DNA from: an uncultured delta proteobacterium
Lineage (GTDB): Bacteria > Desulfobacterota > Desulfobacteria > Desulfobacterales > B30-G6
Direction: 5' to 3'
Assembly: GCA_963823335.1 (NCBI GenBank)
Contig: CAWGLD010000001.1
Coordinates: 672,001 to 736,000 of the forward strand
DNA length: 64,000 bases
Translations under genes and position numbers: made by a program
Shown here: in pieces, positions 9,226-32,769 of the stretch
Position numbering within the stretch: the first letter of the stretch is position 1
How the letters are laid out: the number at the start of each line of letters is the position of its first letter
Notes under the pieces: generated by a model
What the model was told of the DNA's origin: nothing
The model's input: the letters and a program-made list of their open reading frames with translations, nothing else
The model's database searches: none

Positions 9226-9250
9226 GGCGGTTCCTCCATGGCACCTTTTT

Positions 9251-9298: not shown

Positions 9299-9431
9299 CA
9301 AATGTTCATCAATACCGGATAGGTAATATTGATCCTCAACAAGGGGCAAAGACAGTTGTGGGGTTTGACACGCCCCCCATTTTTATGTAAAAGTTCCTGA
9401 GCGGACAGATGCAATGGTGGGGCCAGATCGA

Positions 9432-9453
9432 TGTTGCCACCAAATTAGCAACA
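9432..9453. promoter_or_regulatory. 22-bp palindromic operator 2, upstream of the TrmB RBS
   Basis: TGTTGCCACCAAATTAGCAACA; 17/22 identical to the reverse complement of operator 1. Confidence 0.65.
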
Positions 9454-9469
9454 AAATAAGGAGACATGC

Positions 9470-11562: not shown

Positions 11563-11568
11563 CGATAT

Positions 11569-13801: not shown

Positions 13802-13880
13802 CACGCGTCTCCCCAACCGATCTTTTCACTTATACATACCCGTCCGAAATTATGCTCATACAGCATGCGAGACTGTACAG

Positions 13881-16546: not shown

Positions 16547-16550
16547 CTCA

Positions 16551-17936
16551 ATGGAACTTCATTCGAAACGGAAAAACAAAAAGGCTTCCATGGAAATGTA
16601 TCAAATGGATATCCAGCGGGCTTTGTCCATTTCACTGGCTGCGACGGACAATCTCACAGAAGGGTTAAACTTGTGCCTCGAAGCGAGTCTGCAGATTTCC
16701 GGTATGGATTGTGGCGGTGTCTACCTTTTCGATACCCGCCATGAAAATCTTGATTTGGTCGTTCACAAAGGACTTTCGAAAAATTTCGTCAAGCACATCG
16801 CAACATATGACAAAAATGCAGCAAATGTATTGCTTATTCAGAAAGGCAAGCCCCTCTATACCGTAACAACGAAGCTGGGGGTGCCCCGGTCTCCGGCGCA
16901 AAAACGCGAAGGCTTGCGAGCCCTGGCATCGTTACCATTGTATGACAAATCAAGGATTGTTGGATGTATCAATGTTGCGTCTCACGTTTTTGATGAGATT
17001 TCCCCTTCCTCCCGCATTGCCCTTGAAACTATTGCTGCGCAGGCAGGCAGTGTCATTGCTCGTCTGCAAGCAAAACAGGCGCTCCAGGAAAGCGAAGAGC
17101 ATTTAAGTTCGTTAATGCTTAACGCTGAGCATTACGCTGTTTATCGGTTACAAATCGATGGTTCAGACCCCCACGGGCTAAGAGTTGTTTTTGTAAGCCC
17201 TTCCATAGCAGATATCACGGGGGTTGCCGACCCGGAGAGGTTCGAGACCTGGTTTGAGAATGTCCATGCCGATGACAGGCAAAGAGTTCTATCAGCAAAT
17301 CAGAAAGCGTTCGAAACCAATGAATTTAATGAAGCCATGAAGATCAACCATCCCCGAAAAAAAGAGCATCGCTGGATCCATTCTATCTCTAAAGGTATTC
17401 GCTCCCAAGATGGCAAGATACAATTTGTCAATGGCATCATCATCGATATTACAGAACGAAAACTTGCCGAGCAGGCATTGCTTGCAAAAGAGAAAGAATT
17501 GGAATCAAAAACAAGCAAGCTCGAGGAGATCAACACCGCCCTGAACGTCCTGTTAGAAAAAAGAGAGCAGGATAAAATCCTTTTGCAGGAGCAGGTGCTG
17601 TCGAATGTGAAAAAACTGGTGATCCCATCCGTTGAAAAGCTGAAAAAAGGCACCCTCAACGAAATACAATCAGCCTTACTGGATGTTATCGAGTCAAGTC
17701 TGCATGAAATCGTTTCACCCTTTTCCCATAAACTGTCCTCTGAATTTTTCGGATTAACGCCCGCTGAAATAGAAGTGGCTGCTCTTGTCAGACAGGGCAA
17801 AGGAACAAAAGAAGTTGCAACAATCCGAAATCTTTCACACAAAACAGTGGCACGTCACAGGGAGAATATAAGGAACAAGCTCGGTATAAAAAATAAAAAA
17901 ATTAATCTGCAATCCTACCTGAACGCCCTCGCATAA
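16551..17936 (+). CDS. GAF-PAS-LuxR transcriptional regulator
   Basis: GAF domain, PAS/PAC ending DITERK, coiled coil LEEINTALNVLL, LuxR HTH LTPAEIEVA...HRENIRNKLG. Confidence 0.9.
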   Translation: MELHSKRKNKKASMEMYQMDIQRALSISLAATDNLTEGLNLCLEASLQISGMDCGGVYLFDTRHENLDLVVHKGLSKNFVKHIATYDKNAANVLLIQKGKPLYTVTTKLGVPRSPAQKREGLRALASLPLYDKSRIVGCINVASHVFDEISPSSRIALETIAAQAGSVIARLQAKQALQESEEHLSSLMLNAEHYAVYRLQIDGSDPHGLRVVFVSPSIADITGVADPERFETWFENVHADDRQRVLSANQKAFETNEFNEAMKINHPRKKEHRWIHSISKGIRSQDGKIQFVNGIIIDITERKLAEQALLAKEKELESKTSKLEEINTALNVLLEKREQDKILLQEQVLSNVKKLVIPSVEKLKKGTLNEIQSALLDVIESSLHEIVSPFSHKLSSEFFGLTPAEIEVAALVRQGKGTKEVATIRNLSHKTVARHRENIRNKLGIKNKKINLQSYLNALA

Positions 17937-17993
17937 TACCCATTTCGAGTAGGCACTATATAGGCAATAAAATGGCCTTGATTGTCTTGTGCT

Positions 17994-18878
17994 TCATGAC
18001 CCGTTGACCCTGTGTGCGCCATCATGGGTCAGAAGGGGTGTATAGAGGGCAGGTCTACGATCCCTGAAGAGCCCCCAGCCACTTCTTTCTGCCGCCATGG
18101 CATCCAGGTCAACCTCCGCCGAGACAACCGTTTCCGAAGTACGGTCAGCCCGCTCCATTAGCCGGCCTTTATTGTCGGTAATAAAGGAAGACCCGTAAAA
18201 AGTAATCGCAGAACCATCGATGTTTTCTCTTCCCACACGATTTGACACCACCACAGGCACCATATTTGCAGCGGCATGTCCTTGTATACAGGTTTGCCAG
18301 TGATCCCTGGAGTCATATTCATGATCTTGCGGCTCGGAACCGATAGCGGTTGGGTAAAGGAGAATTTCAGCGCCCATGAGAACCATGCTCCTTGCAGCTT
18401 CAGGAAACCACTGATCCCAGCAGATGCCGATCCCGATGGTGCCGTAACGGGTTTTCCAGACACGAAAGCCGGTGTCACCGGGGCTGAAATAATATTTTTC
18501 CTGATACCCAGGCCCGTCCGGTATGTGTGATTTGCGATAGATGCCTAGAATGGCACCGTCTGCGTCGACAACCGCAATCGTGTTGTAATAGGTCTGATTC
18601 TTTTTTTCGAAAAAGCTGATGGGCAGCACAACCCTCAACTGTCTGGCGAGTGCTGAAAAATGTCGCACCCCGGGGTTGTCCTGAATATCGGCGGCGAGAC
18701 CGAAGAAATCCTGTTTCTGGGATTGACAAAAATAGAGCGTTTCAAAAAGTTCCTGAAGCAAAATGATCTGCGCGCCGCTGGAGGCGGCCTCCCGCACCAG
18801 TGTTTCAGCCTTGGCGATGTTTTCATCCCGGTCCGTGCTGCACATCATCTGGGTAGCGGCAATGGTTACTTTTCGCAT
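17994..18878 (-). CDS. aguB: N-carbamoylputrescine amidase
   Basis: Nitrilase triad QELF / YRKSHIPDGPGYQEKYYF / ICWDQWFPE; YPTAIGSEP; start MRKVTIAA with GGAG RBS. Confidence 0.95.
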   Translation of the reverse strand: MRKVTIAATQMMCSTDRDENIAKAETLVREAASSGAQIILLQELFETLYFCQSQKQDFFGLAADIQDNPGVRHFSALARQLRVVLPISFFEKKNQTYYNTIAVVDADGAILGIYRKSHIPDGPGYQEKYYFSPGDTGFRVWKTRYGTIGIGICWDQWFPEAARSMVLMGAEILLYPTAIGSEPQDHEYDSRDHWQTCIQGHAAANMVPVVVSNRVGRENIDGSAITFYGSSFITDNKGRLMERADRTSETVVSAEVDLDAMAAERSGWGLFRDRRPALYTPLLTHDGAHRVNGS

Positions 18879-18910
18879 GTGCGTCTTCTCCTTCGAGCCG
18901 CAACAATTTA

Positions 18911-20008
18911 TCAGACGGCCGGGACCTGCTGGGTGATACAATGGATGTTCCCGCCGCCGAGCAAAATCTCGCGGGTCTGTACACCCACGATCACCCGCTC
19001 GGGGAAAAGAGCTTGCAGGGATTGCCTGGCCGCCACATCGTGGGGATCGTCAAAAAACGGCATGACGATGCCTCCGTTGGCCATGTAAAAATTGATGTAG
19101 GACCCGGCCAGCCGGTCCCCGGGATTCCTGGGTCGCGTGTTGTCACTGGAATCGAGACCCTCACTTTCTGTTGCGGTCATAAAAAGAGGGCCTGGCTGAT
19201 GAATTTTATGAATTACGAGGTTTCTTCCCCGGGCATCTTTTGACCGGGATAAAAAATCGAAAGCTTCTTCAGATATTTTTCGCTGGGGATCGGTGACATC
19301 ATCCGTCCATGTGAGAGCAACGACCCCCGGTCTTATGAAACAGCACAGGTTGTCCACATGCCCGTCTGTCTCATCGTGGTAGACCCCTTGGGGGAGCCAG
19401 ATGATTTTTTCCACGTTTAAAAAGGATTCCAGATAATCTTCAATCTGCCTCTTTGAAAGTTGTGGGTTACGGTTGGCATTCAAAAGACAGCCTTCGGTGG
19501 TAATGAGCGTTCCTTCTCCATCCACATGAATGGCGCCCCCTTCCATGATGAATGGCGCCCGGTATCGATCCCTGTTTTCAATTTCGAGTACCTTTTTGGC
19601 AACCCGGTCGTCCTGGTCCCACGGAAAATAGAGTCCTTTTTCGAGCCCGCCCCAGGCGTTGAAGCGCCAGTCAATACCACGGACCACGCAAGTCCTGTCA
19701 TTTACGACAAAGGTGGGGCCCACATCCCGCATCCAGGCATCGTCGGAAGATATCTCCAGGACCCGCACTTGCCCGGGCAACCCAAGGCGGGCATTTTCGA
19801 GCTGGTGTCCTGACACCCCTACAGAAACCTGCTCGAAACGGGATATGGCCGCAGCGACTGCAGCAAACGCTTTTTGTGCGGGCTTGGCAGCAAGCCGCCA
19901 GGTGTCTTGTCGCTCCGGCCAGAGCATCCAGCAGCCCTGGTGGGGCTCGAACTCACCCGGCATGCGAAAACCGTCATTCCGTGGATGGTTGTTCAAAGTC
20001 GTTGACAT
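18911..20008 (-). CDS. aguA: Agmatine deiminase
   Basis: [53 protein letters not shown]. Confidence 0.97.
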
Positions 20009-20019
20009 GTGGATCCATG

Positions 20020-20055
20020 ATAAACACCCCCGTGCATACGCACGGGGGTGTTTAT
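20020..20055. terminator. 16-bp stem hairpin between potD and aguA (terminator or mRNA stabiliser)
   Basis: ATAAACACCCCCGTGC-ATAC-GCACGGGGGTGTTTAT perfect stem. Confidence 0.65.
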
Positions 20056-20056
20056 T

Positions 20057-21103
20057 TTAATGCGATTTTGCCCGTGTCCAGGCTTCATCCATGTAACGGT
20101 TCTTATTCCCAAGGTCCTTGGTAAAATGAAGTGTCTTCATGATGTCATCCGTGGGATAAATTCCAGGATTTGTCACGTCTTCCGGTGTAATATAAGGCAT
20201 GGACGCCGCATTGGGCGTGGCATACTGATTATAGTTGGAAAGTTCGGCACCCACCTGCGGCTCGAGAATCCAGTTAATCCACTTGTGGGCTGCATCGGAA
20301 TTAGGCGCCTTGGCAGGGATGCACATGGAGTCAAACCAGATCTCGCTTCCTTCCTTGGGGATGATAAACGCCAGGGTATCCGGCTCCTCGGTAACCGACT
20401 GGATGGCATCTCCATTATAGACGATGGCGGCCGCAGCGGTTCCTGCAACCACATCGTTTTTCCCGCCGACGCCGGGCTTAAACCCCATACAGTCCTTTAA
20501 CTTTTTCGTCGCCACCAGCAGATCGGCAGCTGCCTTGAGCTCTTTGGGTTCGGTGCTGTTGAAATCGTATCCCAGATAAAGGAGTGAGATACCCATCATT
20601 TCGCGGACCGAATCAATCAGCCAGAAAGCGCCGGGGTTCTTTTTTTGATCAAACAGAATCGACCAGGACTGGGCGTCTTCGGGCTTGATCTGGTCTTTTC
20701 GATACATGAGACCCACCGTGCCCCACTGCCATGCCACGGACCATTTGTTCCCTGGATCATAAGAGGTTTCCCGGAAAATAGGCTTCAGGTTCTTCATGTT
20801 CGGAATCTTGGCATGATCGAGCGGTTGAATCAGCTTCTGGTTGATCAACACAGGCATGATATAGTCCGACGGTACGATGATATCGTACTGACTGACACCG
20901 CCGGCCTGGAGCTTGGCCACCATCTCTTCATTGTTTTCGTAAATGTCGAGCCTGACTTTGATCCCTGTCGCTTCTTCGAAAGCGGCCGGCATCGCCTCCT
21001 CATCCATATACTCGGACCAGATGAAAATCTTCAGTTCTTCAGCCACTACCACGGCTGGAACCAGCAACGACAACACGATAAAAACCATAAATAATTTACG
21101 CAT
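20057..21103 (-). CDS. potD: Polyamine ABC transporter substrate-binding protein
   Basis: Signal peptide; WSEYM, YDIIVPSDY, WGTVG, PKEGSEIWFD. Confidence 0.9.
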   Translation of the reverse strand: MRKLFMVFIVLSLLVPAVVVAEELKIFIWSEYMDEEAMPAAFEEATGIKVRLDIYENNEEMVAKLQAGGVSQYDIIVPSDYIMPVLINQKLIQPLDHAKIPNMKNLKPIFRETSYDPGNKWSVAWQWGTVGLMYRKDQIKPEDAQSWSILFDQKKNPGAFWLIDSVREMMGISLLYLGYDFNSTEPKELKAAADLLVATKKLKDCMGFKPGVGGKNDVVAGTAAAAIVYNGDAIQSVTEEPDTLAFIIPKEGSEIWFDSMCIPAKAPNSDAAHKWINWILEPQVGAELSNYNQYATPNAASMPYITPEDVTNPGIYPTDDIMKTLHFTKDLGNKNRYMDEAWTRAKSH

Positions 21104-21205
21104 CTCTCTCTCCTTTCTCTTGGTTAGTGCCTGTTAACACCTTAACAACTTGTTACCTTTACACAACTCACTCGACCCCTGGAATCCTCGAACCCTTCAG
21201 TTACA

Positions 21206-21997
21206 TCATCCTTTACGTGAAATACGCTCGGTGCCGATAACAAGAACCACCGTAATGATCATGATAAGGGTCGACAAAGCATGAATCTGGGGAGTCACAC
21301 CCCGGCGAACGGCTGCAAAAATGTAAAGAGGCAGCGTCTGGGATTCAGGCCCGGCGGTAAAGAAGCTGATTACAAAATCATCCAGAGAAAGCGTGAAGGC
21401 CAGCATACCCCCGGCCACAATACCGGGCATCAGTAATGGCAGCATGATGCGTCTTAGCAGATACCAGTTGCTGGCAAACAGATCACGTGCCGCTTCTTCA
21501 ATTTCATGGCCGATGGCGATAAGTCGGCTGCGTACCACAAGCGCGACAAATGCAACTTGAAAGGTGATGTGCCCGATGATCATGTTCAGAAGCCCGGGTT
21601 CAAACATGGTTGAGAGTACCCGCAAAAGCCCGAAGGCGACCACGAGTGCTGCCGCCAAAATAATATCCGGAATAACCACCGGGATGTGCAAGACAATATC
21701 GAGGGCGTTGCTGGTTCTGCGGGTCCAGGGAAAGCGGTCCATACCGATGGCCAATACGGTTCCCAAAACCGTGGCCACAAGGGTCGACACCACTGCCAGT
21801 ACCAGCGTGTTCCAGGCTGCTTCCAGAATCCATTCATTGCTGAAAAGTTTGACATACCAGTCGAGAGTAAACCCTTTCCAGACCAGACCACGCCGGGCCG
21901 AATTCACCGAGAAAACGGCAACGCCCAACAAAGGGATGTAGAGAAAACCCATGGTGAACAAGGCCAGAGAGGTAATGATGGGATGAGTTCGTTTCAT
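21206..21997 (-). CDS. potC: Polyamine ABC transporter permease
   Basis: GFTLDWY, EEAARDL EAA loop, FTLSLDDF, TLPL. Confidence 0.92.
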   Translation of the reverse strand: MKRTHPIITSLALFTMGFLYIPLLGVAVFSVNSARRGLVWKGFTLDWYVKLFSNEWILEAAWNTLVLAVVSTLVATVLGTVLAIGMDRFPWTRRTSNALDIVLHIPVVIPDIILAAALVVAFGLLRVLSTMFEPGLLNMIIGHITFQVAFVALVVRSRLIAIGHEIEEAARDLFASNWYLLRRIMLPLLMPGIVAGGMLAFTLSLDDFVISFFTAGPESQTLPLYIFAAVRRGVTPQIHALSTLIMIITVVLVIGTERISRKG

Positions 21998-22903
21998 ACG
22001 TGCTCGATCTCCTTGCTCCTGCGCCGATAGATCTGGAGGCTGATCATGGTCAGCACCATGAGCCCCATGCTGATGGCTGCACCAAAAGGCCAGTCCCTGC
22101 TGGATCCGAACTGTTGCTGGATCAGATTTCCAACCAGCATGTACTTGGCGCCTCCCAAAAGATCGGGAACGATAAACATACCCATGGCCGGAACAAAGGT
22201 CAGAATGACCCCCACGGACAATCCGGGCATCGTCTGGGGCAGAATGGCCTGGGTAAATACACGTATCCGTGATGCATACAGATCCTGGGCAGCTTCCACC
22301 AGGGACCAGTCGAGTTTTTCCACACTAGCGTACAGCGGCAAGGTGACAAAAGGTAAAAACATGGAAACCATACCGATATAGACCGCGAAGGCATTCGGAT
22401 AGAGAGGTGCCCCCTCGCTGATAAATCCCAGCGCGGCGGCCAGCTTGGCAAATGGAAGTTCCGGTGCCAAAATCAAAAACCAGGCATAGGTTCTGAATGA
22501 CCATGTTGGTCCAGAAGGGGATGATCACCAGTGTCAGCCACATGTAACGGCTTCTTTCTTCCCGTGCGGCAATAAAAAAGCACAGAGGATATGAAAGCAG
22601 GATGGATACCAGGGTCGTTACCAGAGCCACCACCACCGATCGCCACAGGATGAGCAGGTAATCGGACGTCCATCCAAACAGGCTGAAGCCCATGAGCCGT
22701 TTGTAGTTTTCAATGGTGAATTCCCATACCAGCTGGCCGTAGGCCCCACGCGTGGCAAAACTGACCACCACCAGAACCAGTCCGGGCAGTACCAGAAAAA
22801 CCAAGAGCCAGAGCATTCCGCTTGAAAGGAAAAAAAACCCGCGTTTCAGGAGTTGCGCCTGGGTGGTCAGTTCTCCGTACCATATGAGGAGCCTATGTTT
22901 CAT
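21994..22903 (-). pseudogene. potB: Polyamine ABC transporter permease with a +1 frameshift at ~22496 (real or sequencing error)
   Basis: PFWTNMVI is followed in another frame by RTYAWFLILAP; removing one base gives a 302-aa PotB with EAAQDL and DWPFGAA. Confidence 0.85.
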
Positions 22904-23958
22904 CGGTATTATCCAGTATTACCAGTTCGTTGGGCGAAAGTTCAAGCCAAACTTGATCACCGGGCTTAAAATTTTTATAAGAACTGGTACGGACACGAAG
23001 AGGGCCGGGATTGAGCCAGAGATCAAAATTGGTGCCCCGGTAAATGACTTCACTGACCGTCGCCCTTACACCGTTTGTTTCAGGCTGGGAATCCCGAATC
23101 CAGACCCACTCGGGCCGGATCGCCAATAGACCGCTTTCCCATGGAGGCTCTTTTTCTACTTTCAATACACCGAAGGGGGTCTGGATACCACCGGTGACTT
23201 TCTCTGCCTTTGATGAGGTTTGCAGCACCCAGAAACTCCGCCACAAATCTGTTTTTGGGAAAGTCGTACACTTCCTGCGGCGTTCCGTATTGAACCACCC
23301 GTCCTTCATGCATCACCGCCAGACGATCGCTGCAGACCAGTGCTTCGGACTGGTCATGGGTAACCAGAAGAAAGGTTTTCCCGAGACGGCGCTGGATGCG
23401 CCGAAGATCCTCTTGAACCTGTGCCCGCAATTTGGCATCGAGGGCGGACATGGGCTCGTCCAGCAACAGAATCTCCGGTTCGTTCACCAGCGCCCGTGCA
23501 AGTGCCACGCGCTGTTTTTGACCACCTGACAACTGATCAGGTCGACGGTTTTTCATCTCCTGAAGCCCCAGCATCTCCATCCGTTTGTCCACCCGCTTTT
23601 CTACCTCGCTGTTGGGGAATTTTCGCGAGCGCAGTCCGAAGGCAATATTTTCATAGACACTCAGATGGGGAAAAAGCGCATAACTCTGAAAGACCGTATT
23701 CACCTGTCTTTTGGTGGCGGGCAGGGAAGTAACATCCTGCCCCCCCAGATAGACGTGACCTGTATCTGGTAATTCCAGACCGGCAATAATGCGAAGCAAC
23801 GTGGTTTTACCACAACCGGAAGGTCCCAGCAGGGTCAGAAATTCACCACTGTATACCTCCAGATCCACGTCCTTGAGGGCTTCCACATTTCCGAAGCGCT
23901 TGTTGATACCCTTGACAATCAATCCGTCTTTGTTTGCAGAAATCATCTTTCCTGGCAT
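22893..23958 (-). pseudogene. potA: Polyamine ABC transporter ATPase with a +1 frameshift at ~23210 (real or sequencing error)
   Basis: GPSGCGKT, VFQSYALFPH, LSGGQKQR; after GAANLI the C-terminal domain (AIRPE, IYRG) is in another frame; removing one base gives 354 aa. Confidence 0.85.
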
Positions 23959-24003
23959 TTCTCTATTAAGGTTAAGATACCTCTTTTACCTGCCTGGGGT
24001 GTA

Positions 24004-24549
24004 TCAGCCCATATAACCGGGTGTGCGTGGAACACGAACAGCTGCATTCAGAACATTTTGAGCGAGTCGGTGTCGTTTCTCGCCGGCCGTACCGGCTGAA
24101 ATGCGCTGTTTCATCTGGCTATTCCGAAGTTTGCGGGAATTTTTATCCGGTTCTTTGAACAGCAAAGCCCCGTAATTGCATTCATCCACACAGACCGGCG
24201 TGCCGCCACAAAGATCACACTTGAATGCCTTGCCGGACCCGTATTGCTCGATCATACCATAAGGGCAGGCATCGACACAATCACCGCACCCGTCACATTT
24301 GCTCACATCCACCACAACGACGCCCCTGTCGTTTTTGAAGATGGCCTCCACCGGACAGGCCTCCATACAGTCTGGTTTCGGACACTGAAAACAGATGTTC
24401 TGTACCGAATACCCCTGGAGCGGAAAATTGTTTATTTTCATTCGTGCCTTCGAGGGCATGAACAAACCTTCTTTTGCAGCAGCACAGGCATATGTGCAAC
24501 GATTGCACCCTGTGCAGCGATTGGGTATGGCCAACAGATGCTTTTCCAT
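24004..24549 (-). CDS. Multi-[4Fe-4S] ferredoxin-like electron-transfer subunit (DmsB/AOR partner type)
   Basis: CTGCNRCTYAC, CFQC..PDCMEACP, CDGCGDCVDACP, KCDLC...CVDEC. Confidence 0.92.
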   Translation of the reverse strand: MEKHLLAIPNRCTGCNRCTYACAAAKEGLFMPSKARMKINNFPLQGYSVQNICFQCPKPDCMEACPVEAIFKNDRGVVVVDVSKCDGCGDCVDACPYGMIEQYGSGKAFKCDLCGGTPVCVDECNYGALLFKEPDKNSRKLRNSQMKQRISAGTAGEKRHRLAQNVLNAAVRVPRTPGYMG

Positions 24550-24608
24550 CGTACTCCTCCATCGTTATATATCAAACCTGCGGTTAGCGATGCTAACACG
24601 TTTATTTT

Positions 24609-27600
24609 TTAAAGACCTTCAAGACCAAGTTTTTCCAACTTGTCTTCACCGGGCCTGCCGTCAGCATCCCATCCGCGAAGATGATAATAGAGTAGTTTCA
24701 TCTCCTCCAGGTCTTCGAAACGTAAAACACGCCCTTCATGGGGACCATTTTCGAGGGTCTTTTTGATCAATTTATCCGACAGCACATCATCCTTTGCCGT
24801 AAAGCCTGCCCGAAGATTGTAAAGACGCATGAGGTTCCAGATCCGTTCGCCCGCTTTGTCCAAATCTTCGGCAGAAAATTGCCGACCCATACCTGCGGTC
24901 AACAGACCCGCCATGATCTGTGTATCGACAGATCCCCAGAAGTCACAAAAGCACATGCACCATTTGATGGCATTGCCGTTCTGACCCTTGATCACTTCTT
25001 TGACCATTGAATCGAGTTTGAAGGGGTCTTCCGCAAACAAGGTAAACGCTCTTAGATGGCAGGCACCACGCTCACTGGTGGCATACGCCAAGCCCATCCC
25101 ATAACTTCCCCTGGGGTCGTAAGCGGGCATTTCCAGTCCTTTGGCATGGGCCGCTTTTCCGGACTCCCCATATAACGCATCCAGTTTTGCGGCACCCTGG
25201 GCCAGTGTACGGCCTCTCTCCGTGGACAGACGCGCGATTTCCTCCACCACCGCCAGGTACCCCTCTGGCTGACCGAATGCCAGTTCAAAGTCATTCAGCC
25301 CCGCTTCGGTCAGATCCATGGCCAGGGCGATGGTACTGCCTGTAGACATGGTGTCCAGACCAAGATCATCGCAAATGCGGTTAAAACGCATGACCTGCTC
25401 CAGGTCATTGATCTCGCAGTTGGAACCACCCAGGCATAATGTCTCGTATTCAGGTCCTTCCATTTCGACCCCGTTAACGGAGGTAAAATTGCCGCAGCCC
25501 AGCGGACACGATGCACAGGCCCTGTCTCCGATCTGGATGGACTTGATGGCTTCCGAATCGAGTGAATTGCGTCGGGGATTCATACCCTGAGTGTAATTGC
25601 GGGTGGGATGTATACCCATCTCATTGGTAACTTCCACCAGCATAGGCGTGCCTTTATTCTTGGCCCACAGGTTTCCTTCGGTCAACAGGTTGGACTCTGT
25701 GGCATCGGCCACCTTCCCCAGGAAAACACCCATATCAGCAACCTGAACCCCTCCTGTGCCGATACAGGCAAGCGCCTTGAGCTTCTTGGCTCCGAAAAGA
25801 GACCCCGCGCCTCCACGTCCCATCTGCCGATAGGCTTCTGAGCCGATACAGGCAAAGGGGATGATATTTTCGCCAGCCGGGCCGATGGAGAGACTCTTGA
25901 CCTCATGCCCCATGGTCTCCTGCAGCCATTCCTCTGTCTCGAATATTCCTTTACCCCAGACAGCATCCGCTTTTTCCAGGCTTACCCGGTCATCTTCGAT
26001 ACGCAGATAAACCGGGCTATCCGCCTGACCCGTAATGACGATACCGTCATACCCGGCGAATTTGAGTTCGGGACCGAAGGCACCACCTATGTTTGATTCG
26101 AAAATCGTGCCTGTGGCCGGCGACTTGGAAACAAGACAGAGCCGGGATGCCGTGGGTGCCAGGGTGCCGCACAATGGACCGGTCATGATCACGATGGGGG
26201 TGTCCGGTGACAGGGCATCGGCGGTGGGATCCGAAAGATCGTAGAAATACCGTGTCGCAAGACCCCACCCGCCGATGTAGTCATTTAGCCAGTTTTTGTT
26301 AATAGGCTTGGCTGTAACGGTTCGGGATGAAAGATCCACATGCAGCAGTTGGCCGGCGTAGAGATTCATGGTCTGGGGTCTTTTGGGCAGTTCGATGGAT
26401 TTGAAAACATCTTCGAGCCGGTTGAGAATTTCATCTAAAATTTTCTGGGGCACATTCAAGGCCGGTTCAAATCGGATGTTTTTTGCATTGGTCAGGGTTC
26501 CGGCCGTGAGGACGCCTCGCGAAAATAGACCCGAAGCGACTTTGTACCCGATGCCGTCTGTGGAAAATTCCATGCCTATCAAAAGCCCCAGACCCCTGAC
26601 ATTGGCCAGTACCCCGGGATATCGATCCTGAAGTTGTCTCAACTGGCTGCGCACATAGTGGCCTTTGGTTTTAGCCTGCCCGGCCAGATCTTCCTCCAAT
26701 AAAACCGTGATCGCCGCCAGGGCGGATGCACACGCCAGGGGATTTCCGCCGGTGGTGGTAGTGTGCATAAAGGGGTTGGGCTCCATGCATTCCCATATTT
26801 TCGCGGTGGACATAAAGGCGGACATGGGCACCACACCACCTCCCAGGGCTTTGCCCAGGCAGAGGATGTCCGGTGCGACATTCCAGTGATCCACACCGAA
26901 GATCTCTCCGGTACGGCCCATGCCGGTCTGGACCTCATCCGCGATAAGGAGCACGCCGTAATGACTGCAGATTTCACGTAAACGCGGCCAGTAATCATCG
27001 GGTGGCACGATGGCGCCGGCTTCACCCTGTATGGGCTCCGCAACGACAGCGGCAATACCGTCACCCACCGCTTTGGCAGCCGCCAGGGCTTGTTCCACAG
27101 CCTGGGCATCGCCAAAAGGAACATGCCGGACCCCCTCGAGCAGGGGCAGCAGGGGCTCCCGATACGTCTTTTTACCCATCAATGAAAGCGCTCCCAGGGT
27201 CTTGCCGTGAAAGGCCTTGAGCATGGAGATGAATCCGCTTTTTCCGGTGTAGAGCTTGGCCAGCTTCATGGCGCCTTCCACCGCTTCCGTTCCGGAATTG
27301 GCGAAAAAGCCGTATTGAATCTTTCCCGGTGTCAGCAACGCCAGGACCCTGGCCAGTTGGGCGCGCAAGGGATCGAGCATCTCCTGGCTGTACTGGGGCG
27401 AACGGTCCAGCTGGGCTTTGACGGCCTGCACAATCTTCGGGTGACGAATTCCGTAGGAGTATAAACCAAAGCCGCCCAGAAGGTCCAGATACTCGCGGTC
27501 GAGGGCATCCACAAGGACAGAGCCCTGACCCGTCCACTCTGTAATGGCAAAATTCGTCGCCTCGGTGACGGATTTTCTGTAATTGAGAAAGCCTTTGTTG

Positions 27601-27773
27601 ATGTGGTCCCTGAAATTGCGTTCGGTTTTCAGAGCGACTTCCTGGCGTACATCGAGGGCTGTCTGTTCCAGGGGGGTCAATATGATATCAACCATTTGCA
27701 CGGCCTCTTTCAGAGCCGTCTGTATGTCCCTTCCCCGATAATCGCTCTTATAATTTTTTTCAAAATCTCGCAT
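24609..27773 (-). CDS. patA: Fusion of putrescine aminotransferase (aa ~1-460) and W/Mo aldehyde:ferredoxin oxidoreductase (aa ~469-1054)
   Basis: N-half HINKGFLNYRKSVT, LGGFG, DEVQTG, LGKALGGG, HTTTTGGNP (PatA/YgjG-like); C-half GQLLHVDLS, SKSPATG, LKFAGYD, GRGG, CASCPLGC, EYET, DDLGLDT, YDPRG, ERGACH (AOR); AGGAG RBS. Confidence 0.88.
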   Translation of the reverse strand: MRDFEKNYKSDYRGRDIQTALKEAVQMVDIILTPLEQTALDVRQEVALKTERNFRDHINKGFLNYRKSVTEATNFAITEWTGQGSVLVDALDREYLDLLGGFGLYSYGIRHPKIVQAVKAQLDRSPQYSQEMLDPLRAQLARVLALLTPGKIQYGFFANSGTEAVEGAMKLAKLYTGKSGFISMLKAFHGKTLGALSLMGKKTYREPLLPLLEGVRHVPFGDAQAVEQALAAAKAVGDGIAAVVAEPIQGEAGAIVPPDDYWPRLREICSHYGVLLIADEVQTGMGRTGEIFGVDHWNVAPDILCLGKALGGGVVPMSAFMSTAKIWECMEPNPFMHTTTTGGNPLACASALAAITVLLEEDLAGQAKTKGHYVRSQLRQLQDRYPGVLANVRGLGLLIGMEFSTDGIGYKVASGLFSRGVLTAGTLTNAKNIRFEPALNVPQKILDEILNRLEDVFKSIELPKRPQTMNLYAGQLLHVDLSSRTVTAKPINKNWLNDYIGGWGLATRYFYDLSDPTADALSPDTPIVIMTGPLCGTLAPTASRLCLVSKSPATGTIFESNIGGAFGPELKFAGYDGIVITGQADSPVYLRIEDDRVSLEKADAVWGKGIFETEEWLQETMGHEVKSLSIGPAGENIIPFACIGSEAYRQMGRGGAGSLFGAKKLKALACIGTGGVQVADMGVFLGKVADATESNLLTEGNLWAKNKGTPMLVEVTNEMGIHPTRNYTQGMNPRRNSLDSEAIKSIQIGDRACASCPLGCGNFTSVNGVEMEGPEYETLCLGGSNCEINDLEQVMRFNRICDDLGLDTMSTGSTIALAMDLTEAGLNDFELAFGQPEGYLAVVEEIARLSTERGRTLAQGAAKLDALYGESGKAAHAKGLEMPAYDPRGSYGMGLAYATSERGACHLRAFTLFAEDPFKLDSMVKEVIKGQNGNAIKWCMCFCDFWGSVDTQIMAGLLTAGMGRQFSAEDLDKAGERIWNLMRLYNLRAGFTAKDDVLSDKLIKKTLENGPHEGRVLRFEDLEEMKLLYYHLRGWDADGRPGEDKLEKLGLEGL

Positions 27774-27855
27774 TTTATACTCCTATCTTTCTTTTTGCTG
27801 CCATGCCGCAATTGACCTTGATGGCATGTGCGCACAAAAGCGGTCTGACCCAAAC

Positions 27856-28001
27856 TAGAAGCTATCTCAAAAAAGTTTTTTGACCCAATTTCTGTGTTGG
27901 TTTCTTGCTTCAACTCCTCGGAATACTGCAGTATGCCTGCGGGTTGACGTTCGGGCCCGCCTTGAACTTGAGCCAAAACTCTTTTTTTGAGATGGCTTCT
28001 A
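27856..28001. mobile_element. MITE (~146 bp) whose terminus supplies the TetR stop codon
   Basis: TIR TAGAAGCYATCTCAAAAAA with one mismatch; internal motifs shared with the element at 58087. Confidence 0.75.
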
Positions 28002-28601
28002 AACTGTCGGCTGCTTTAACAATTTGACGGCGATCTCCTTTGAAGCTTTGGCAAAGGTCTCAAATGGCTGACCATCGGAAAGAAACTGTGTGTGGAATTC
28101 CAACCCTTCCATAAGGGTTACAATAAAATCCGCCGCCATTTTTACATCTTTTGCCTTTGTGATACCCGCTTCCTGGTATATTTCCAGCTCATGCACCAGA
28201 TAATCTCGAAACCGTTTGAACATTTCCCTGAAGCGTTTCCGAATCACCGGTTTCCTGAAGCTGAGATAGTAAAACCCGAAGTGAACACCCGTATCCACAG
28301 TCCTTGACCACTCAAGGGAAAAAATAGTATCCATCAGCGCTTGAAACCGCTCATTTAAATCCGGGATGTGACTGAAATCAAGAAATTCCGGTGCCTCGTA
28401 TTTCTCGATGATGAGGTCTACGAGCTCGATGGTCATATTTTCTTTGGTTTTAAAGTAGTGAATGATCAGACTGGGATGGATTTTCGCGCGCTTTGCGATC
28501 TTGCCGATGGATGCGCCCTCCAGTCCTTCCTTCATGATTACCTGGTAGTAATTTTCTAGAATTTCTGATTTGCGTATTTCAGCTTTTTGATTTTTCCGCA
28601 T
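27999..28601 (-). CDS. TetR-family (BetI-like) transcriptional regulator
   Basis: EGLEGASIGKIAKRAKIHPSLIIHYFKTKE HTH; C-terminal LMEGL. Confidence 0.92.
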   Translation of the reverse strand: MRKNQKAEIRKSEILENYYQVIMKEGLEGASIGKIAKRAKIHPSLIIHYFKTKENMTIELVDLIIEKYEAPEFLDFSHIPDLNERFQALMDTIFSLEWSRTVDTGVHFGFYYLSFRKPVIRKRFREMFKRFRDYLVHELEIYQEAGITKAKDVKMAADFIVTLMEGLEFHTQFLSDGQPFETFAKASKEIAVKLLKQPTV

Positions 28602-28624
28602 GGGTCGCTTGCGCTCCGGAGAAA

Positions 28625-28646
28625 ATTATATGAATATTCATTTAAT
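28625..28646. promoter_or_regulatory. Palindromic operator overlapping the -10/+1 region of the TetR operon promoter
   Basis: ATTATATGAATATTCATTTAAT, 20/22 self-complementary with perfect core ATGAATATTCAT. Confidence 0.7.
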
Positions 28647-28670
28647 AATCTTGGCGAAAAGGGCTGTCAA
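28642..28670 (-). promoter_or_regulatory. Sigma70-type promoter of the tetR-patA/aor operon
   Basis: TTGACA-17 bp-TATTAA. Confidence 0.7.
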
Positions 28671-28713
28671 GAAAAAATTTGAAACAAAAAAAACGATCGC
28701 ACCCCCGCTAGGC

Positions 28714-28763
28714 TCTGCCATATGGCAGAAGATTCCTCGCAGCTTGCTGCGAGGAATCTTCAA
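28714..28763. repeat. REP-like palindromes
   Basis: TCTGCCATATGGCAGA abutting GAAGATTCCTCGCAGC-TT-GCTGCGAGGAATCTTC; related motifs at 47492-47633. Confidence 0.7.
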
Positions 28764-28784
28764 TAGCGATCTTCTACTGACACC

Positions 28785-30080
28785 CTATATTGCTCGGCTC
28801 AGCGGGAAATTTGGTGGCTGAAACAGTCTGTGCGACGGCACGGCCCAGATATCCGGCTCGGCAAGGGGTTTGATGGACTTCCCGGTGTGGATCACCAGGC
28901 CACCCAGCCACTTTTTACCGAGCTGTTGTGCGACTGTGCGCATGGCACGCGTATCTTTGGTGTGTGCGGTGGCGCGGGATTTAATTTCCATTGCGATGAT
29001 GCCGGCCGGTGTTTCAAGCAGCAGGTCCAACTCCATGCCGGATCTTGTGCGGTAAAAATACAGTTCGGCTTCTTTGCCGCGGGTTCGCATCCATTTGATA
29101 ATTTCCGCAACCACCATGGTTTCATAAAGCTGGCCGCTGGTTTCTCCCCTATAACCGGTCAGTTGACGCCAGATCCCGACATCAGTCCAGAAAAGCTTGG
29201 GCGTTTTGATCGTAGAACTTGTGATGTTTTTATAATAGGGCTGCAGCAGAAAGGTCTGATAGGAGAGCCGCAAATATTCCATGTACCTTCTGGCTGAATC
29301 GACGCTGATACCGGTATCTCTTGCCAGTTCTGAATAGTTGAGCAGCATGCCGGAGCGCAGAGCAGAGAGCTTTTGGTATTTTCGAAACGGCATCAAATCA
29401 TCCAGACGGGCCAAATCAGCGAGGTCGCGTTCCAAATAGGTATATCCATAGTTTTTTAGCCATTCCCATCGTTCTGCGTCCGACAATGGGAGCAAGGCAG
29501 GCATACCGCCCCAGGCAAGTATATGTTGTTCCGCCTGACGACAGGCCAAATCGTCGGCTTCAAGCAAAACCGACTGAATGCCAGTAAGTATCCGGGCTAC
29601 TGGATGCCCTGAAAAAAACGCATCGATCAGCGGCACGGGGCGTTCTGCATTGCCGTCCTTTGCCTTCTGGAGCAGTTCACACGGCATTAGTGGCCAAAGT
29701 TCGTAAAAGAAAGCCCTGCCTGCCAATGATTCGCGAATCTTTTTGAGCAATAGAATCTGACTCGATCCGGTAAGCACCGTAAAGGAGATCGCCCCTTCAT
29801 CAAAAGCGTATTTCACTTTTTCAAAAATGGAAGGCTCTTTTTGAGCTTCGTCAATAACTGCATTGCCCACGGTTTGCGCCCAGGCCAGGGTTGAAAGCTG
29901 GCGAAGTGTGTCACGGTTTTCCGGGGCATCCAAGTTGATATATCGCAAGGCCGAATAAGCGGTCCTGCAAAGGGTGGTTTTCCCGGTTTGGCGCGCGCCG
30001 GTGAGAACCACGATTCGATGGGTTGCAGCGTTGGGTAAGCGTTGGTTGACTTGGCGGTATTTGTGTGAATCAAACGACAT
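28785..30080 (-). CDS. AAA+ ATPase with C-terminal DUF4143 / PD-(D/E)xK-like domain
   Basis: GARQTGKT, IDEAQK, LTGSS, ESLAGR, WGGMP, YLERDL, PKLFWTD, YRTRSGMELDL...EIK. Confidence 0.88.
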   Translation of the reverse strand: MSFDSHKYRQVNQRLPNAATHRIVVLTGARQTGKTTLCRTAYSALRYINLDAPENRDTLRQLSTLAWAQTVGNAVIDEAQKEPSIFEKVKYAFDEGAISFTVLTGSSQILLLKKIRESLAGRAFFYELWPLMPCELLQKAKDGNAERPVPLIDAFFSGHPVARILTGIQSVLLEADDLACRQAEQHILAWGGMPALLPLSDAERWEWLKNYGYTYLERDLADLARLDDLMPFRKYQKLSALRSGMLLNYSELARDTGISVDSARRYMEYLRLSYQTFLLQPYYKNITSSTIKTPKLFWTDVGIWRQLTGYRGETSGQLYETMVVAEIIKWMRTRGKEAELYFYRTRSGMELDLLLETPAGIIAMEIKSRATAHTKDTRAMRTVAQQLGKKWLGGLVIHTGKSIKPLAEPDIWAVPSHRLFQPPNFPLSRAI

Positions 30081-30086
30081 GAACGT

Positions 30087-30115
30087 ATAATAGGCTGTAA
30101 AATTTACGATGTCAA
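30087..30115 (-). promoter_or_regulatory. Sigma70-type promoter predicting a leaderless mRNA for the AAA/DUF4143 gene
   Basis: TTGACA-17 bp-TATTAT, then 6 nt to ATG; no SD. Confidence 0.65.
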
Positions 30116-30239
30116 CATAAAATATACATCAGTATCGCCTTTTGTAAAACAGGGATTCGATGCAAAAGTCATTGCCTGACAAGCCTAACCAACCCCCGTT
30201 TCAAGGTCTGATCGATCACCTTGCCTTGGGCGAACCATG

Positions 30240-31463
30240 TTAGTCACGTCCGTCTTTATATGTTTCCTCCACGGTTACACCTAATTTGGCCAGTTCCTTG
30301 AAATAATAGGTCCGGGCTTTCTTTTCGAGCTGCTCTGGAACGTACAATCCTTTTTTCGTAAAAACGTCCTCCACCATCATTTTTACAAAAACCGCCGCAC
30401 ATTGCCCTGTCATAAAAGCCTCATGGGTCAATCCGGAGCTCTTGAAAGCATCAACCAGACCCGGTGCGTTGGCATAGGTATCGACCCGGACAGGTTTACC
30501 ATTCTTGAAGCCATCGACCCGGACAAGAAAGGCGGCTTCTTCGGTGATCACCCCTTCATCGATAATGCTCTGTATTTCATCTGAATATTTAGGGGCAGGC
30601 GGGCAGAGTTCCAGAACCAGGTCCATGGGTATCACGGAAGCACCATTGACGGTCACCGGCTTGGTGGAGAGCAGTCCGAGCTTATACAGATCTTCGGACA
30701 GCTCGACCCCGGACCCGCCGTACTTGAATTCGACATTTTTAACACCTTTGAGGGCTTTATCGGCCATCAGTCCCATGGTAACAGGCTCATCATGTTCATG
30801 GTCGACCAACCGTACCGGGTGGTCGATCCCCTTGAATTTCATCCAGATAGGTCGGCTAAAGGGTTTGTCTATGATGTGCTCCCCGTCCTCATAGCGAAAT
30901 GTTTTGTAGGCCATGTCTCCGAAAGCCACTTCCGGCGACCACCAGAAAGGCGTAAACCGCTTGGTCTTCAAGCCCTCGTATACATATATGCCGATGGTGT
31001 CGCATGAATCCATTTTTTCGACTGCCTCCCTGGCCATGACGTTGGCCAGGCCGGGGGCGGAGCCTCCACCGAGAAGCGCTGACAGACCCTTTGCCTTGAA
31101 TTTTCGATGCCATTTTGTAAACATCATCTGATAGCTTTCAACAAAACCGACGTCTTCCATGGGGCCGGCCATGTCAAAATAGGACGCATTCACGGCCAGA
31201 GCCGCTTCCATGATGTTCAGGTTGTACTCCAGGGGCAACCCGTTCACTATCAGGTCACAGCCCTGAGCAGCTTGAATCACGTTATCGACATCGCTGGCGT
31301 CCAACTGGAGCGCCTTGGCCTTTTTTAAAGAGCCGCTCAATTTTTGGGCGGCTTTCTGATCATAATCCGCACAGATAATTTCCGATACCTGGGGATGTTC
31401 ATCCATCCTTTTGGCGATGGTGCTTCCTTGAGCGCCAACACCGACCACAATTATTTTTTTCAC
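30240..31463 (-). CDS. Saccharopine dehydrogenase-family NAD(P)-dependent oxidoreductase
   Basis: Rossmann GVGAQG, IICAD, YFDMAG, GSAPGLANV, WSPE, HEHDE; GTG start with AAGGAAG RBS. Confidence 0.85.
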   Translation of the reverse strand: MKKIIVVGVGAQGSTIAKRMDEHPQVSEIICADYDQKAAQKLSGSLKKAKALQLDASDVDNVIQAAQGCDLIVNGLPLEYNLNIMEAALAVNASYFDMAGPMEDVGFVESYQMMFTKWHRKFKAKGLSALLGGGSAPGLANVMAREAVEKMDSCDTIGIYVYEGLKTKRFTPFWWSPEVAFGDMAYKTFRYEDGEHIIDKPFSRPIWMKFKGIDHPVRLVDHEHDEPVTMGLMADKALKGVKNVEFKYGGSGVELSEDLYKLGLLSTKPVTVNGASVIPMDLVLELCPPAPKYSDEIQSIIDEGVITEEAAFLVRVDGFKNGKPVRVDTYANAPGLVDAFKSSGLTHEAFMTGQCAAVFVKMMVEDVFTKKGLYVPEQLEKKARTYYFKELAKLGVTVEETYKDGRD

Positions 31464-31509
31464 AATTCTTCCTTTCAATTTGTAATGATTGTGTGTTAGT
31501 TTTGCCAAA

Positions 31510-31538
31510 ATAGTAGGCCGCCCATGTTCGTTTGTCAA
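31510..31538 (-). promoter_or_regulatory. Sigma70-type promoter of the saccharopine dehydrogenase-like gene
   Basis: TTGACA-17 bp-TACTAT. Confidence 0.7.
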
Positions 31539-31631
31539 TAAAAATATATCATAATTCGGCGGATATGGTTAAATTACTATAAAATAAACGCGGATTACGA
31601 TGGAAAATAACTATTGATCCGGGAGGACCCC

Positions 31632-32117
31632 ATGATGAAAAAAGAGAAAAAGACCAGCAGGAAAAAGATTGACCGGGTCGATCAAGACATGATCCGATTG
31701 CTCCAAAAAGATGGACGAATGTCGATTGTAGATATCGCCAAGGAACTCGGTATTTCAGAAACCACGGCCCGTACCCGCCTCAAGCGCTTGATCCGTAAAG
31801 AAATTATCAATGTGGTGGCGGTCAGCAATCCCATCAAACTCGGGTTTGAAATCATCGGCAATCTCAAACTCACCATCGATCTTAAAAAGAAAGACCATAT
31901 CCTGAGCAGGCTGGTCAAAAACGACAAATTGAATTATATTGCGCTGACCACCGGTGGAACAGACCTGGACGTCGAGTTTATCGCTCGTTCTCTGGATGAA
32001 TTCAAGGCTTTGATTTTTAATGAAATACCCAATATCGACGGTGTCATATCGCTTGACACGTCTTTGATTGTGGAAATCGTCAAAGACACGTGGGATTTTG
32101 GAACAGCATGGGATTGA
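31632..32117 (+). CDS. Lrp/AsnC-family transcriptional regulator
   Basis: IDRVDQDMIRLLQKDGRMS..IAKELGISETTARTRLKRL; TTGGTDL RAM domain; GGAGG RBS. Confidence 0.93.
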   Translation: MMKKEKKTSRKKIDRVDQDMIRLLQKDGRMSIVDIAKELGISETTARTRLKRLIRKEIINVVAVSNPIKLGFEIIGNLKLTIDLKKKDHILSRLVKNDKLNYIALTTGGTDLDVEFIARSLDEFKALIFNEIPNIDGVISLDTSLIVEIVKDTWDFGTAWD

Positions 32118-32136
32118 TCGGGAGCGGAGCCCTCTT

Positions 32137-32760: not shown

Positions 32761-32769
32761 TGGTGCCTC

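Follow-up and report, generated by a model that had tools for sequence, protein, structure and literature searches.

We examined a 64,000-nucleotide stretch of DNA (hereafter the window; contig CAWGLD010000001.1, positions 672,001 to 736,000, or G000:C1:672001-736000) from the genome of an uncultured delta proteobacterium (GCA_963823335.1; 4.37 Mb, 93.9% complete), focusing on a gene in which a putrescine aminotransferase (PatA) is fused to an aldehyde:ferredoxin oxidoreductase (AOR). The nearest titled relatives of the window are uncultured Desulfobacterales, its GC content is unremarkable, and a profile search placed dsrA of the source genome over its cut-off. The fusion gene belongs to a set of nine that lie on the minus strand in the order tetR, patA-aor, FeS subunit, potA, potB, potC, potD, aguA and aguB, with intergenic gaps of -11 to 225 bp. 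The initial annotation had named all nine in this order and on a single strand, and we confirm it in this; it had overlooked a saccharopine-dehydrogenase-like gene, an AsnC regulator and an AAA-ATPase gene upstream, and had underplayed the most unusual feature of the locus, namely that the single open reading frame (ORF) listed as patA-aor is a conserved fusion.

The PatA-AOR fusion and its operon

The fusion gene (24609..27773, minus strand) is a stop-free ORF of 1054 aa that comprises a putrescine aminotransferase (residues ~1-461), a short linker of ~10 residues and an AOR/WOR large subunit (~470-1054), with the Pfam domains PF00202 (76-456), PF02730 (475-672; 244.9 bits) and PF01314 (703-1051; 362.8 bits). 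The PatA part passes the cut-off of NF008570 (637.7 > 612) and scores below that of TIGR03372 (487.2 < 658.65). Its best Protein Data Bank (PDB) match is E. coli YgjG (4uox), and those of the AOR part are the AORs 9mqx and 1aor, with 434 bits to AmWOR1, 420 to PfAOR and 152 to WOR5. A protein search returned 179 matches among 8000 scored candidates; the 120 matches listed (90%-clusters) share all three domains with the window fusion, to which they are 71-100% identical, most have 1051-1061 aa, and where named they are called putrescine aminotransferase or aldehyde:ferredoxin oxidoreductase. The search for conservation proposed in the initial annotation thus bears out a fusion conserved in Desulfobacterales: 301 genomes drawn evenly from the class included 30 with a PatA match at E <= 1e-120, fused in 14 of them (six families), and 401 genomes of the phylum gave four PatA matches, two of them fused. 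Given a conserved family among both the 120 listed homologues and 14/301 class genomes, we rejected the loss of a stop codon as the origin of the long frame.

To compare residues, 74 of the 120 listed homologues were aligned, and the available parts of two papers supplied the YgjG substrate residues (PMC4244111) and the second-shell residues of PfAOR (PMC13328260). The PatA residues Q119, F180, K183, E243, D271, K300, F327, T332, L419 and R426 are invariant (74/74), as are G150, T151 and Q274 of the pyridoxal phosphate (PLP) site (positions via the 4uox alignment). At YgjG F91 the fusions have F in 65 cases and Y in nine, and Y402 is kept in 67; the window fusion has all six diamine-selecting residues (F91, Q119, F180, K183, F327 and L419). 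On the AOR side, PfAOR residues T243, E313, Y427 and H448 and the four FeS cysteines are found in 74/74 fusions (alignment to 1aor).

The next gene encodes a small subunit of the WorS/AorA type (24004..24549, minus strand; 181 aa, 16 Cys) with four 4Fe-4S motifs and the best PDB matches 9mqx_E, 8c0z_C and 6x6u_B, and it lies directly 3' of the fusion in 20/20 loci with downstream DNA. Two appendages set the fused type apart: an acidic N-terminal motif, present in 71/74 fusions and 0/23 unfused PatAs, and, at the C-terminus of the small subunit, a basic tail found in 16/19 fusion loci and the window as against 0/22 unfused loci. As sequence features confined to the fused type, they suggest a co-adapted assembly. 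AlphaFold2 models of the whole fusion (74-row alignment; mean pLDDT 62.9, pTM 0.60) were not informative on domain packing, and that of the small subunit (pLDDT 42) was unusable. An intact fusion with its small subunit, at 79% identity, is also encoded at L004:6195-9984, in a record titled Olavius-associated proteobacterium Delta 1 (a gutless-worm symbiont).

It could be argued that the fusion preserves a chance adjacency of two genes with unrelated jobs, a general detoxifying AOR having come to lie beside patA; the source genome holds ~13 AOR paralogues, and unfused arrangements exist. We find this hardly credible, given that length and linker are kept across 71-100% identity, that the N-terminal motif and the small-subunit tail are specific to the fusion, and that patA has also recruited a second, unrelated AOR clade, as described below.

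The four genes that follow on the minus strand encode a polyamine-type ABC transporter, for which Pot models are the best NCBIfam matches and every score lies under its cut-off: a potA-like ATPase (22893..23958; best match PotA, below cut-off on a truncated frame, with the TOBE domain in a second frame), a potB-like permease (21994..22903; best match a Pot model), a potC-like permease (21206..21997; PotC 222 < 326) and a potD/potF-like polyamine-binding protein (20057..21103; PotD 185.6, PotF 176.9). One extra base in potB (22492-22496) and one in potA (23206-23209) are missing from the contigs of 4/4 runs compared, one of which may be the source sample, and both genes are single ORFs in relatives; the frameshifts are thus assembly errors, and we rejected the reading of potA and potB as pseudogenes. 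The last two genes, likewise on the minus strand, encode agmatine deiminase, AguA (18911..20008; TIGR03380 576.5 > 381.8), and N-carbamoylputrescine amidase, AguB (17994..18878; TIGR03381 461.8 > 410.25), the latter most likely starting at ATG 18878 and giving a product of 294 aa. We found no clear terminator 3' of aguB (fold z -0.2), and an Rfam scan of window positions 16000-33000 gave no match. Further along the window, positions 7936-13816 (minus strand) hold an ornithine-aminotransferase-like gene, a gene for a TrmB regulator and a cluster of GNAT, ATP-grasp and PLP-decarboxylase genes.

The window stretch is present in 20/22 listed public runs from 14 studies, mostly of marine or estuarine sediment. 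Six of these runs are estuary metatranscriptomes, and in two of them contigs span 27 and 28 of 30 bins; the ATPase gene is uncovered, and one or more of those strains lack it. We did not accept these contigs as proof of expression, as they carry neither strand nor level and DNA carry-over is possible.

Upstream of tetR, a sigma70-type promoter and a TetR-type operator palindrome (28625..28670, minus strand) were recognised from the sequence, from conserved upstream regions and from a genome-wide matrix score. The promoter consists of a -35 element TTGACA (28670-28665), a 17-nt spacer and a weak -10 element TATTAA (28647-28642); it was not listed in a consensus promoter scan, which performed near chance (15 sites vs 13.4 in shuffles). 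Of the sigma70 promoter with overlapping palindrome that had been described initially, the conserved -35 element and the palindrome stand; the -10 element is weak, and the perfect 12-bp core (28641-28630) abuts it rather than overlapping it, the overlap being restricted to the wider imperfect arms. Among 13 aligned upstream regions, picked by a prior pattern-search match, the core columns T-GAA--TTCA are invariant in 13/13 and TTGAC is found in 11/13. With a matrix built from 12 relatives, the window palindrome scores 31.9 and the next site in the genome 20.5. Judged from these alignments, the conservation of the palindrome exceeds chance and, since it is conserved upstream and is the sole high-scoring site of the genome, autoregulation by TetR fits. 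The putative autoregulator, a TetR-family repressor of 200 aa (27999..28601, minus strand; PF00440 + PF18665), is encoded 5' of the fusion in 13 of the 21 fusion loci considered below.

Between tetR and patA-aor lies a 143-bp hairpin-forming multicopy repeat (27856..27998, no strand assigned; fold z -4.1), which has 59 near-full copies in the genome, shows a depth spike in 4/4 runs and is not operon-specific. A second multicopy palindromic repeat (28726-28770; 53 blast matches) is also intergenic in the operon. An AAA ATPase/DUF4143 gene (28785..30080, minus strand; assigned by Pfam), located between tetR and the saccharopine-dehydrogenase-like gene, is a variable insertion outside the pathway: it is found in 0/73 compared loci, and a contig of run X12 skips it with a joint at 28779-30222.

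The saccharopine-dehydrogenase-family oxidoreductase (30240..31538, minus strand; PF03435/PF16653) has orthologues in 5/21 fusion loci and in the unfused loci L021, L023, L025, L026, L042, L044 and L132. A divergent AsnC/Lrp regulator (31614..32117, plus strand; Pfam) adjoins it, and the same pair occurs in L001, L002 and L019. The product is distant from carboxyspermidine dehydrogenase 8deb (E 1e-15; PDB matches E 1e-11 to 1e-17) and has no NCBIfam match at 1e-20, and a cluster atlas queried with 30243-31460 returned 'saccharopine dehydrogenase' clusters only. It may be regarded as a candidate for cutting a longer polyamine to give putrescine or an aminoaldehyde. A place in carboxy(nor)spermidine dehydrogenase/decarboxylase biosynthesis is not supported by these distant matches, and tblastn of the genome with nspC and CANSDH of L034 was negative at 1e-15; nor was it borne out that this gene is a steadier partner of the fusion than aguAB, which likewise occurs in 5/21 fusion loci. 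At L134:7781-11355 and L135:5903-10980, an AsnC gene and a saccharopine-dehydrogenase-like gene lie together with a PatA of only distant kinship (46-47%) and no AOR nearby, and these gene sets could make homospermidine (from putrescine and 4-aminobutanal) or cleave a longer polyamine.

Gene neighbourhoods of patA and the AOR clades

We then hand-counted the neighbourhoods of 21 fusion loci (the window, L001-L009, L011-L013, L017, L035, L036, L119-L121, L136 and L137), of which L011 and L013 are frameshifted in their own assemblies and several lie on short contigs. Full potABCD is present in 12 and partial sets at contig ends in two, an arginase-family gene in seven and gabT in six. The arginase-family genes match PF00491 in the two tested, and one tested narrowly passes the agmatinase cut-off (180.9 vs 174.3). 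The core of these loci is patA-aor-worS together with polyamine uptake, the agmatine step being provided by either of two unrelated enzymes or missing. With aguAB in five and the arginase-family gene in seven of the 21, aguAB is accessory, and the 'agmatine operon' label of the initial annotation is too narrow.

These counts also bear on the possibility, which we hold to be quite improbable, that the main substrate is not putrescine. Cadaverine could be converted to 5-aminovalerate; agmatine itself could pass through 4-guanidinobutanal to 4-guanidinobutyrate, with the arginase-family gene encoding a guanidinobutyrase; or the saccharopine-dehydrogenase-like enzyme could cut aminoaldehydes from spermidine or homospermidine. 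YgjG accepts putrescine or cadaverine (PMC4244111), the agmatinase cut-off is barely passed, the Pot scores lie below cut-offs, the reaction of the recurrent saccharopine-dehydrogenase-like gene is unassigned, and two or three AORs occur in some operons (L001, L002 and L127), all of which would be in keeping with such routes. In contrast, AguA and AguB pass their cut-offs and yield putrescine, the narrow-entrance residues of YgjG are all kept, and sister operons have PatD-type partners.

A FastTree phylogeny of 99 AOR rows from the compared loci separated clade A (42 rows with support 0.97, of which 21 are unfused and 21 fused, including one duplicate), clade B (12 rows; support 1.0) and clade C (12 rows; support 1.0). 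Three kinds of aldehyde enzyme accompany unfused patA. Beside close patA homologues, the Desulfuromonadales/Geobacteraceae loci L023-L026 and L044 have an unfused clade A AOR with small subunit; L016, L021, L042 (Desulfopila sp. IMCC35006), L127 and L129-L132 have a clade B AOR (28% identity) without small subunit; and six loci, L015 and L122-L126, have an NAD-dependent aldehyde dehydrogenase of the PatD type (above the NF010000 cut-off). In L128 and L133 we found no aldehyde enzyme near patA. Glutamate dehydrogenase genes lie 3' of patA-aorB in L129, L130 and L194. In the PatA tree, the PatD type arises in two places and clade B in three, and the fused type lacks support as a monophyletic group (0.085). 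Among 27 PatA genomes tested, PatD is over cut-off in 0/14 with the fused type, compared with 5/13 of the others. Nothing speaks more strongly for oxidation of 4-aminobutanal by the AOR than this swapping with the textbook PatD enzyme beside patA, and the earlier proposal that AOR takes the place of PatD is upheld, as far as gene content can show, by the six loci and the 14 fusion genomes.

The swaps also argue against a route in the reductive direction, in which AOR would reduce GABA (4-aminobutyrate), PatA would aminate the aldehyde and putrescine would be made. AORs are reversible, with acid reduction by AaAOR being mentioned in the available part of bioRxiv 2023.01.23.525143, and a fusion would be most useful where formation of the aldehyde is uphill. 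The operon, however, encodes polyamine import and a supply of putrescine from agmatine, and its sister operons place an oxidative NAD-dependent PatD-type enzyme at this point, so that we judge this reading very improbable.

Unfused members of clade A are found in other settings as well. At L027:2000-5990 and L028:10007-13973, the AOR and its small subunit lie directly before betA (over cut-off on L027), at the usual place of betB, making this AOR a candidate betaine aldehyde oxidoreductase; in L018, L022 and L037, clade A lies beside MttB genes. The clade may perhaps consist of general amino-aldehyde oxidoreductases, mirroring the relatedness of the NAD-dependent PatD and BetB. Among other arrangements encountered, the Pontiella loci L034 and L038 hold polyamine operons (potD aguB potABC patA aguA aminotransferase, Fe-ADH, ALDH) with no AOR, which adjoin a carboxynorspermidine synthase/decarboxylase pair; L045:2850-7743, from a Bacillota record, reads gabT-aor-gdh; and L061:2152-5355, from a Bathyarchaeia record, pairs a DAT-like aminotransferase with an Asp-type AOR, as defined in the next section.

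A residue with a possible link to substrate charge, and the predicted use of GABA

We compared the AORs at the position after the fourth FeS cysteine, where Asp (Asp944 of the window fusion) is found in 21/21 fused and 20/21 unfused rows of clade A, the lone exception adjoining 2-oxoacid dehydrogenase genes, and is invariant in the 74 fusion homologues. Clade B has Asp in 10/12, the two members with Leu being paralogues from the source genome that lie outside polyamine loci, and clade C has Arg or Lys in 11/12. The loci of clade A were partly retrieved by a pattern containing this Asp; those of clades B and C and the 74 homologues were not. In solved broad-range AORs, Leu, Leu, Val, Ile or Lys occupies the position. 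The formaldehyde ferredoxin oxidoreductase (FOR) of P. furiosus has Arg there (R492), and the clade C AOR also aligns an Arg with FOR R481 (both numbered by counting). We take R481 and R492 to hold the distal carboxylate of glutarate. This ligand lies in the P. furiosus FOR site, and glutaric semialdehyde is the proposed substrate (PMC12096430, in its available part). At the level of sequence, Asp in the patA-linked lineages and Arg/Lys in the gabT-linked clade C fits amino- versus carboxy-aldehyde substrates.

For a blind test, 583 metagenome loci with clade B-like genes were available; of the best 80, 72 spanned the residue position and 18 of these had Asp. Where the flank was at least 1.5 kb, polyamine genes lay beside 8/14 Asp members and 0/44 non-Asp members of clade B; two further Asp loci had a YdcS-like ABC system or an ornithine/putrescine transcarbamylase (OTC/PTC)-like gene. 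The Fisher p of 2e-6 is overstated, since all Asp members fall into one subclade within a group of members with Leu, Met or Phe. The sister subclade of these polyamine-linked clade B AORs has Met (L214-L219), and the gene that follows was radical-SAM-like in the four loci examined.

Genes for the use of GABA were looked for in the class genomes. GabT is over cut-off in 98/301 class genomes, comprising 30/30 with PatA and 68/271 without, and a search for GABA-utilising genes, as advised in the initial annotation, accordingly succeeded both in the source genome and in all those with PatA. In the source genome, gabT (C1:1458231-1459541) is followed directly 3' by a clade C AOR at C1:1459568-1461346, and the pair (L076, G000:C1:1457355-1462484) is flanked by a methyl-tetrahydrofolate:corrinoid methyltransferase gene and pylB. 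This AOR is a candidate succinic semialdehyde:ferredoxin oxidoreductase; the genome also encodes a protein resembling succinic semialdehyde dehydrogenase (SSADH), below cut-off (569.8 < 646). Clade C-like genes are present in 26/27 PatA genomes tested, and they lie <=1 kb from gabT in at least 35 of the 98 gabT genomes and <=8 kb from it in at least 14 more (hand count).

Besides dsrA, the source genome has rnfC, ACS, moaA and two sdhA over cut-off and encodes an NADP-glutamate dehydrogenase. Putrescine transcarbamylase is below cut-off in this 93.9% complete genome (best 318.2 < 500). With no transcarbamylase over cut-off, ATP would not be made from carbamoyl phosphate, as the initial annotation had held. 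AguB in its stead had also been taken to imply an energy gain from redox, which the lack of a transcarbamylase alone does not show. Two further AOR loci of this genome may be mentioned. L079 (G000:C5:183369-193955) is another transaminase-AOR pairing, in which a pyridoxamine-pyruvate transaminase-like gene stands with a Pot-like ABC system and two AORs, one of them frameshifted, and in L077 (G000:C1:1097123-1105293) an AOR, an MttB-like gene, an ornithine aminotransferase and a carbamate kinase are clustered.

Proposed route and comparison with known systems

From the genes, fusion, residues, co-occurrence and partner swaps observed, we infer activities, metal, acceptor, channelling and growth as follows. 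It seems fairly probable, on this comparative evidence, that putrescine is transaminated to 4-aminobutanal and oxidised to GABA by the fusion, that GabT and an AOR or SSADH lead on to succinate, and that oxidation is completed with sulfate. The nine genes would serve a sulfate reducer as a catabolic operon under the control of TetR, in which PotABCD would import agmatine or putrescine and AguA and AguB would convert agmatine to putrescine, 2 NH3 and CO2 without ATP. The PatA domain would transfer an amino group from putrescine (probably also cadaverine) to 2-oxoglutarate, leaving 4-aminobutanal. Free 4-aminobutanal cyclises to 1-pyrroline; the fused pterin-metal AOR domain would oxidise the open-chain form to GABA before it is lost in this way, the fusion raising the local concentration of the aldehyde. 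Electrons would pass from the 4Fe-4S cluster of the AOR to the four-cluster small subunit and on to a low-potential carrier, most likely ferredoxin, as in the layout of Class II WORs. GabT, encoded elsewhere, would turn GABA into succinic semialdehyde, and the gabT-linked second AOR, or the SSADH-like enzyme, would yield succinate. Sulfate would be the final electron sink, with Rnf able to conserve the gap between ferredoxin and NAD.

The main doubt concerns the acceptor. The aldehyde/acid couple and ferredoxin both lie at ~-500 mV, and dilute aldehydes reduce ferredoxin poorly (PMC13328260); the fusion would thus be helpful, and ferredoxin is for the same reason doubtful. Its reduction by a scarce, mostly cyclised aldehyde would stand near equilibrium, and another acceptor is conceivable. 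Genes for ferredoxin, WorN and WorABC are missing from the operon, and in the mapped loci neither WorN nor WorABC, which would mark a Class III/IV WOR, lies beside the fusion, partners encoded elsewhere not having been searched. Several further points weigh against the proposed route. By rough reasoning, ABC uptake could take a large share of the little ATP that sulfate respiration yields, and the Pot proteins score under the PotA/C/D cut-offs. Clade A is not putrescine-specific, in view of its betA and MttB neighbours. Clade C occurs in 139/301 class genomes, including families without GabT, for which reason we rejected it as GABA-specific. As for the residue, 4/14 Asp loci of clade B show no amine gene; because their Asp members form one subclade, the blind test amounts to a single evolutionary gain, apparently separate from that of clade A; Asp is also found in 10/33 other AORs, mostly of unexamined context; and Lys occurs in WOR83 and several unrelated paralogues of the source genome. 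The search for W-pterin genes, likewise advised at the outset, was successful for moaA, over cut-off as noted, while the tupABC-like operon lies below cut-offs (TupA/B/C 336.7<400, 295<320 and 180.8<400) and 0/22 TupA-like matches exceeded theirs. Finally, kin are not independent in any of our counts.

In an alternative reading, the AOR chemistry is the same and serves to scavenge nitrogen, keep polyamine levels in balance or remove aldehydes, and/or a higher-potential acceptor is used, with no net growth on polyamines. High-affinity ABC uptake costs ATP, AguA and AguB free ammonia without ATP, and most characterised WORs have been described as aldehyde-detoxifying (PMC13328260); the limits on ferredoxin reduction at low aldehyde and an operon without an acceptor gene point the same way. 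We nevertheless regard it as unlikely. The TetR operator is local and no obvious nitrogen regulator is seen; GabT in all PatA genomes and glutamate dehydrogenase in some operons fit full breakdown; and the host encodes succinate, ACS and Dsr routes.

A wider reading, which we offer tentatively and think somewhat doubtful, is an all-tungsten polyamine respiration in Desulfobacterales, with co-adapted PatA-AOR-polyferredoxin channelling, a second AOR for succinic semialdehyde and a one-residue charge rule. If it holds, Asp was gained separately in two clades, the AOR clades mirror the PatD/BetB and GabD families, and ~0.2 V more is conserved per step than with the NAD-dependent families. With ~-500 against -280 mV (PMC13328260), exchanging NAD for ferredoxin could spare ~40 kJ for each aldehyde oxidised, an important saving for an anaerobe short of energy.

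A literature search, covering sources other than subscription journals, returned no account of an aminotransferase fused to an AOR, nor of polyamine breakdown that involves an AOR. The main text and three supplementary files of PMC13328260 mention neither aminotransferase nor putrescine nor polyamine, and the available parts of PMC5320631, PMC9246946 and PMC10547907 hold no AOR-polyamine link. The locus represents a conserved and apparently undescribed form of a known pathway, in which the enzyme architecture is new, and probably an undescribed route for oxygen-free putrescine oxidation, with AOR in the role of an NAD-dependent aldehyde dehydrogenase. A PLP enzyme fused to WorL is an architecture unmentioned in the five-class WOR scheme, as far as the available part of PMC13328260 extends. 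According to the same source, only 5/92 WOR clades have a member of defined physiological role (PMC13328260); the conserved fusion names a specific, cheap and testable substrate for one clade and suggests substrates for two more, and the one-residue rule is offered for predicting substrate charge in AORs. If the route is correct, polyamines would be electron donors for sediment sulfate reducers, and the fusion would be a natural transaminase-oxidoreductase cascade, relevant to amine/acid biocatalysis.

Among known systems, AmWOR1 (9mqx), PfAOR (1aor) and AaAOR (8c0z) are the best PDB matches of the AOR domain and the small subunit. They have Leu, Leu and Val where the fusion family has Asp, are unfused and are not tied to one pathway aldehyde, and AmWOR1 and AaAOR have extra NAD-linked subunits. 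Class II WORs (PfASOR/WOR5 and CbGOR; PMC13328260) share the WorL residues, a four-cluster WorS and an operon without an NAD or bifurcating module; here, in contrast, WorL is preceded by a 461-aa PLP enzyme, and its sequence is nearer to AmWOR1 and PfAOR than to WOR5. Membership of Class II would accordingly be one of subunit layout, and ferredoxin as acceptor follows the definition of the class by analogy. The likeness to P. furiosus FOR (1b25/1b4n; PMC12096430) concerns the clade C AOR outside the window, with Arg at R481/R492. The agmatine steps resemble the Pseudomonas-type AguA/AguB route, both enzymes scoring over their cut-offs here. The fermentative agmatine deiminase pathway (AguA, putrescine transcarbamylase and carbamate kinase) differs in its transcarbamylase, for which no gene over cut-off was found here, and in that putrescine would here be imported and broken down, not exported. 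The closest counterpart is the PatA/YgjG-PatD-GabT-GabD route of E. coli, with which the window system has in common a PatA domain over the NF008570 cut-off, the YgjG residues, GabT and the proposed route to succinate. It departs from that route in that the genome has no PatD over cut-off, a pterin-metal AOR with a polyferredoxin subunit being fused to PatA instead, in that a gabT-linked second AOR may replace GabD, and in its setting in a strict anaerobe under putative TetR control.

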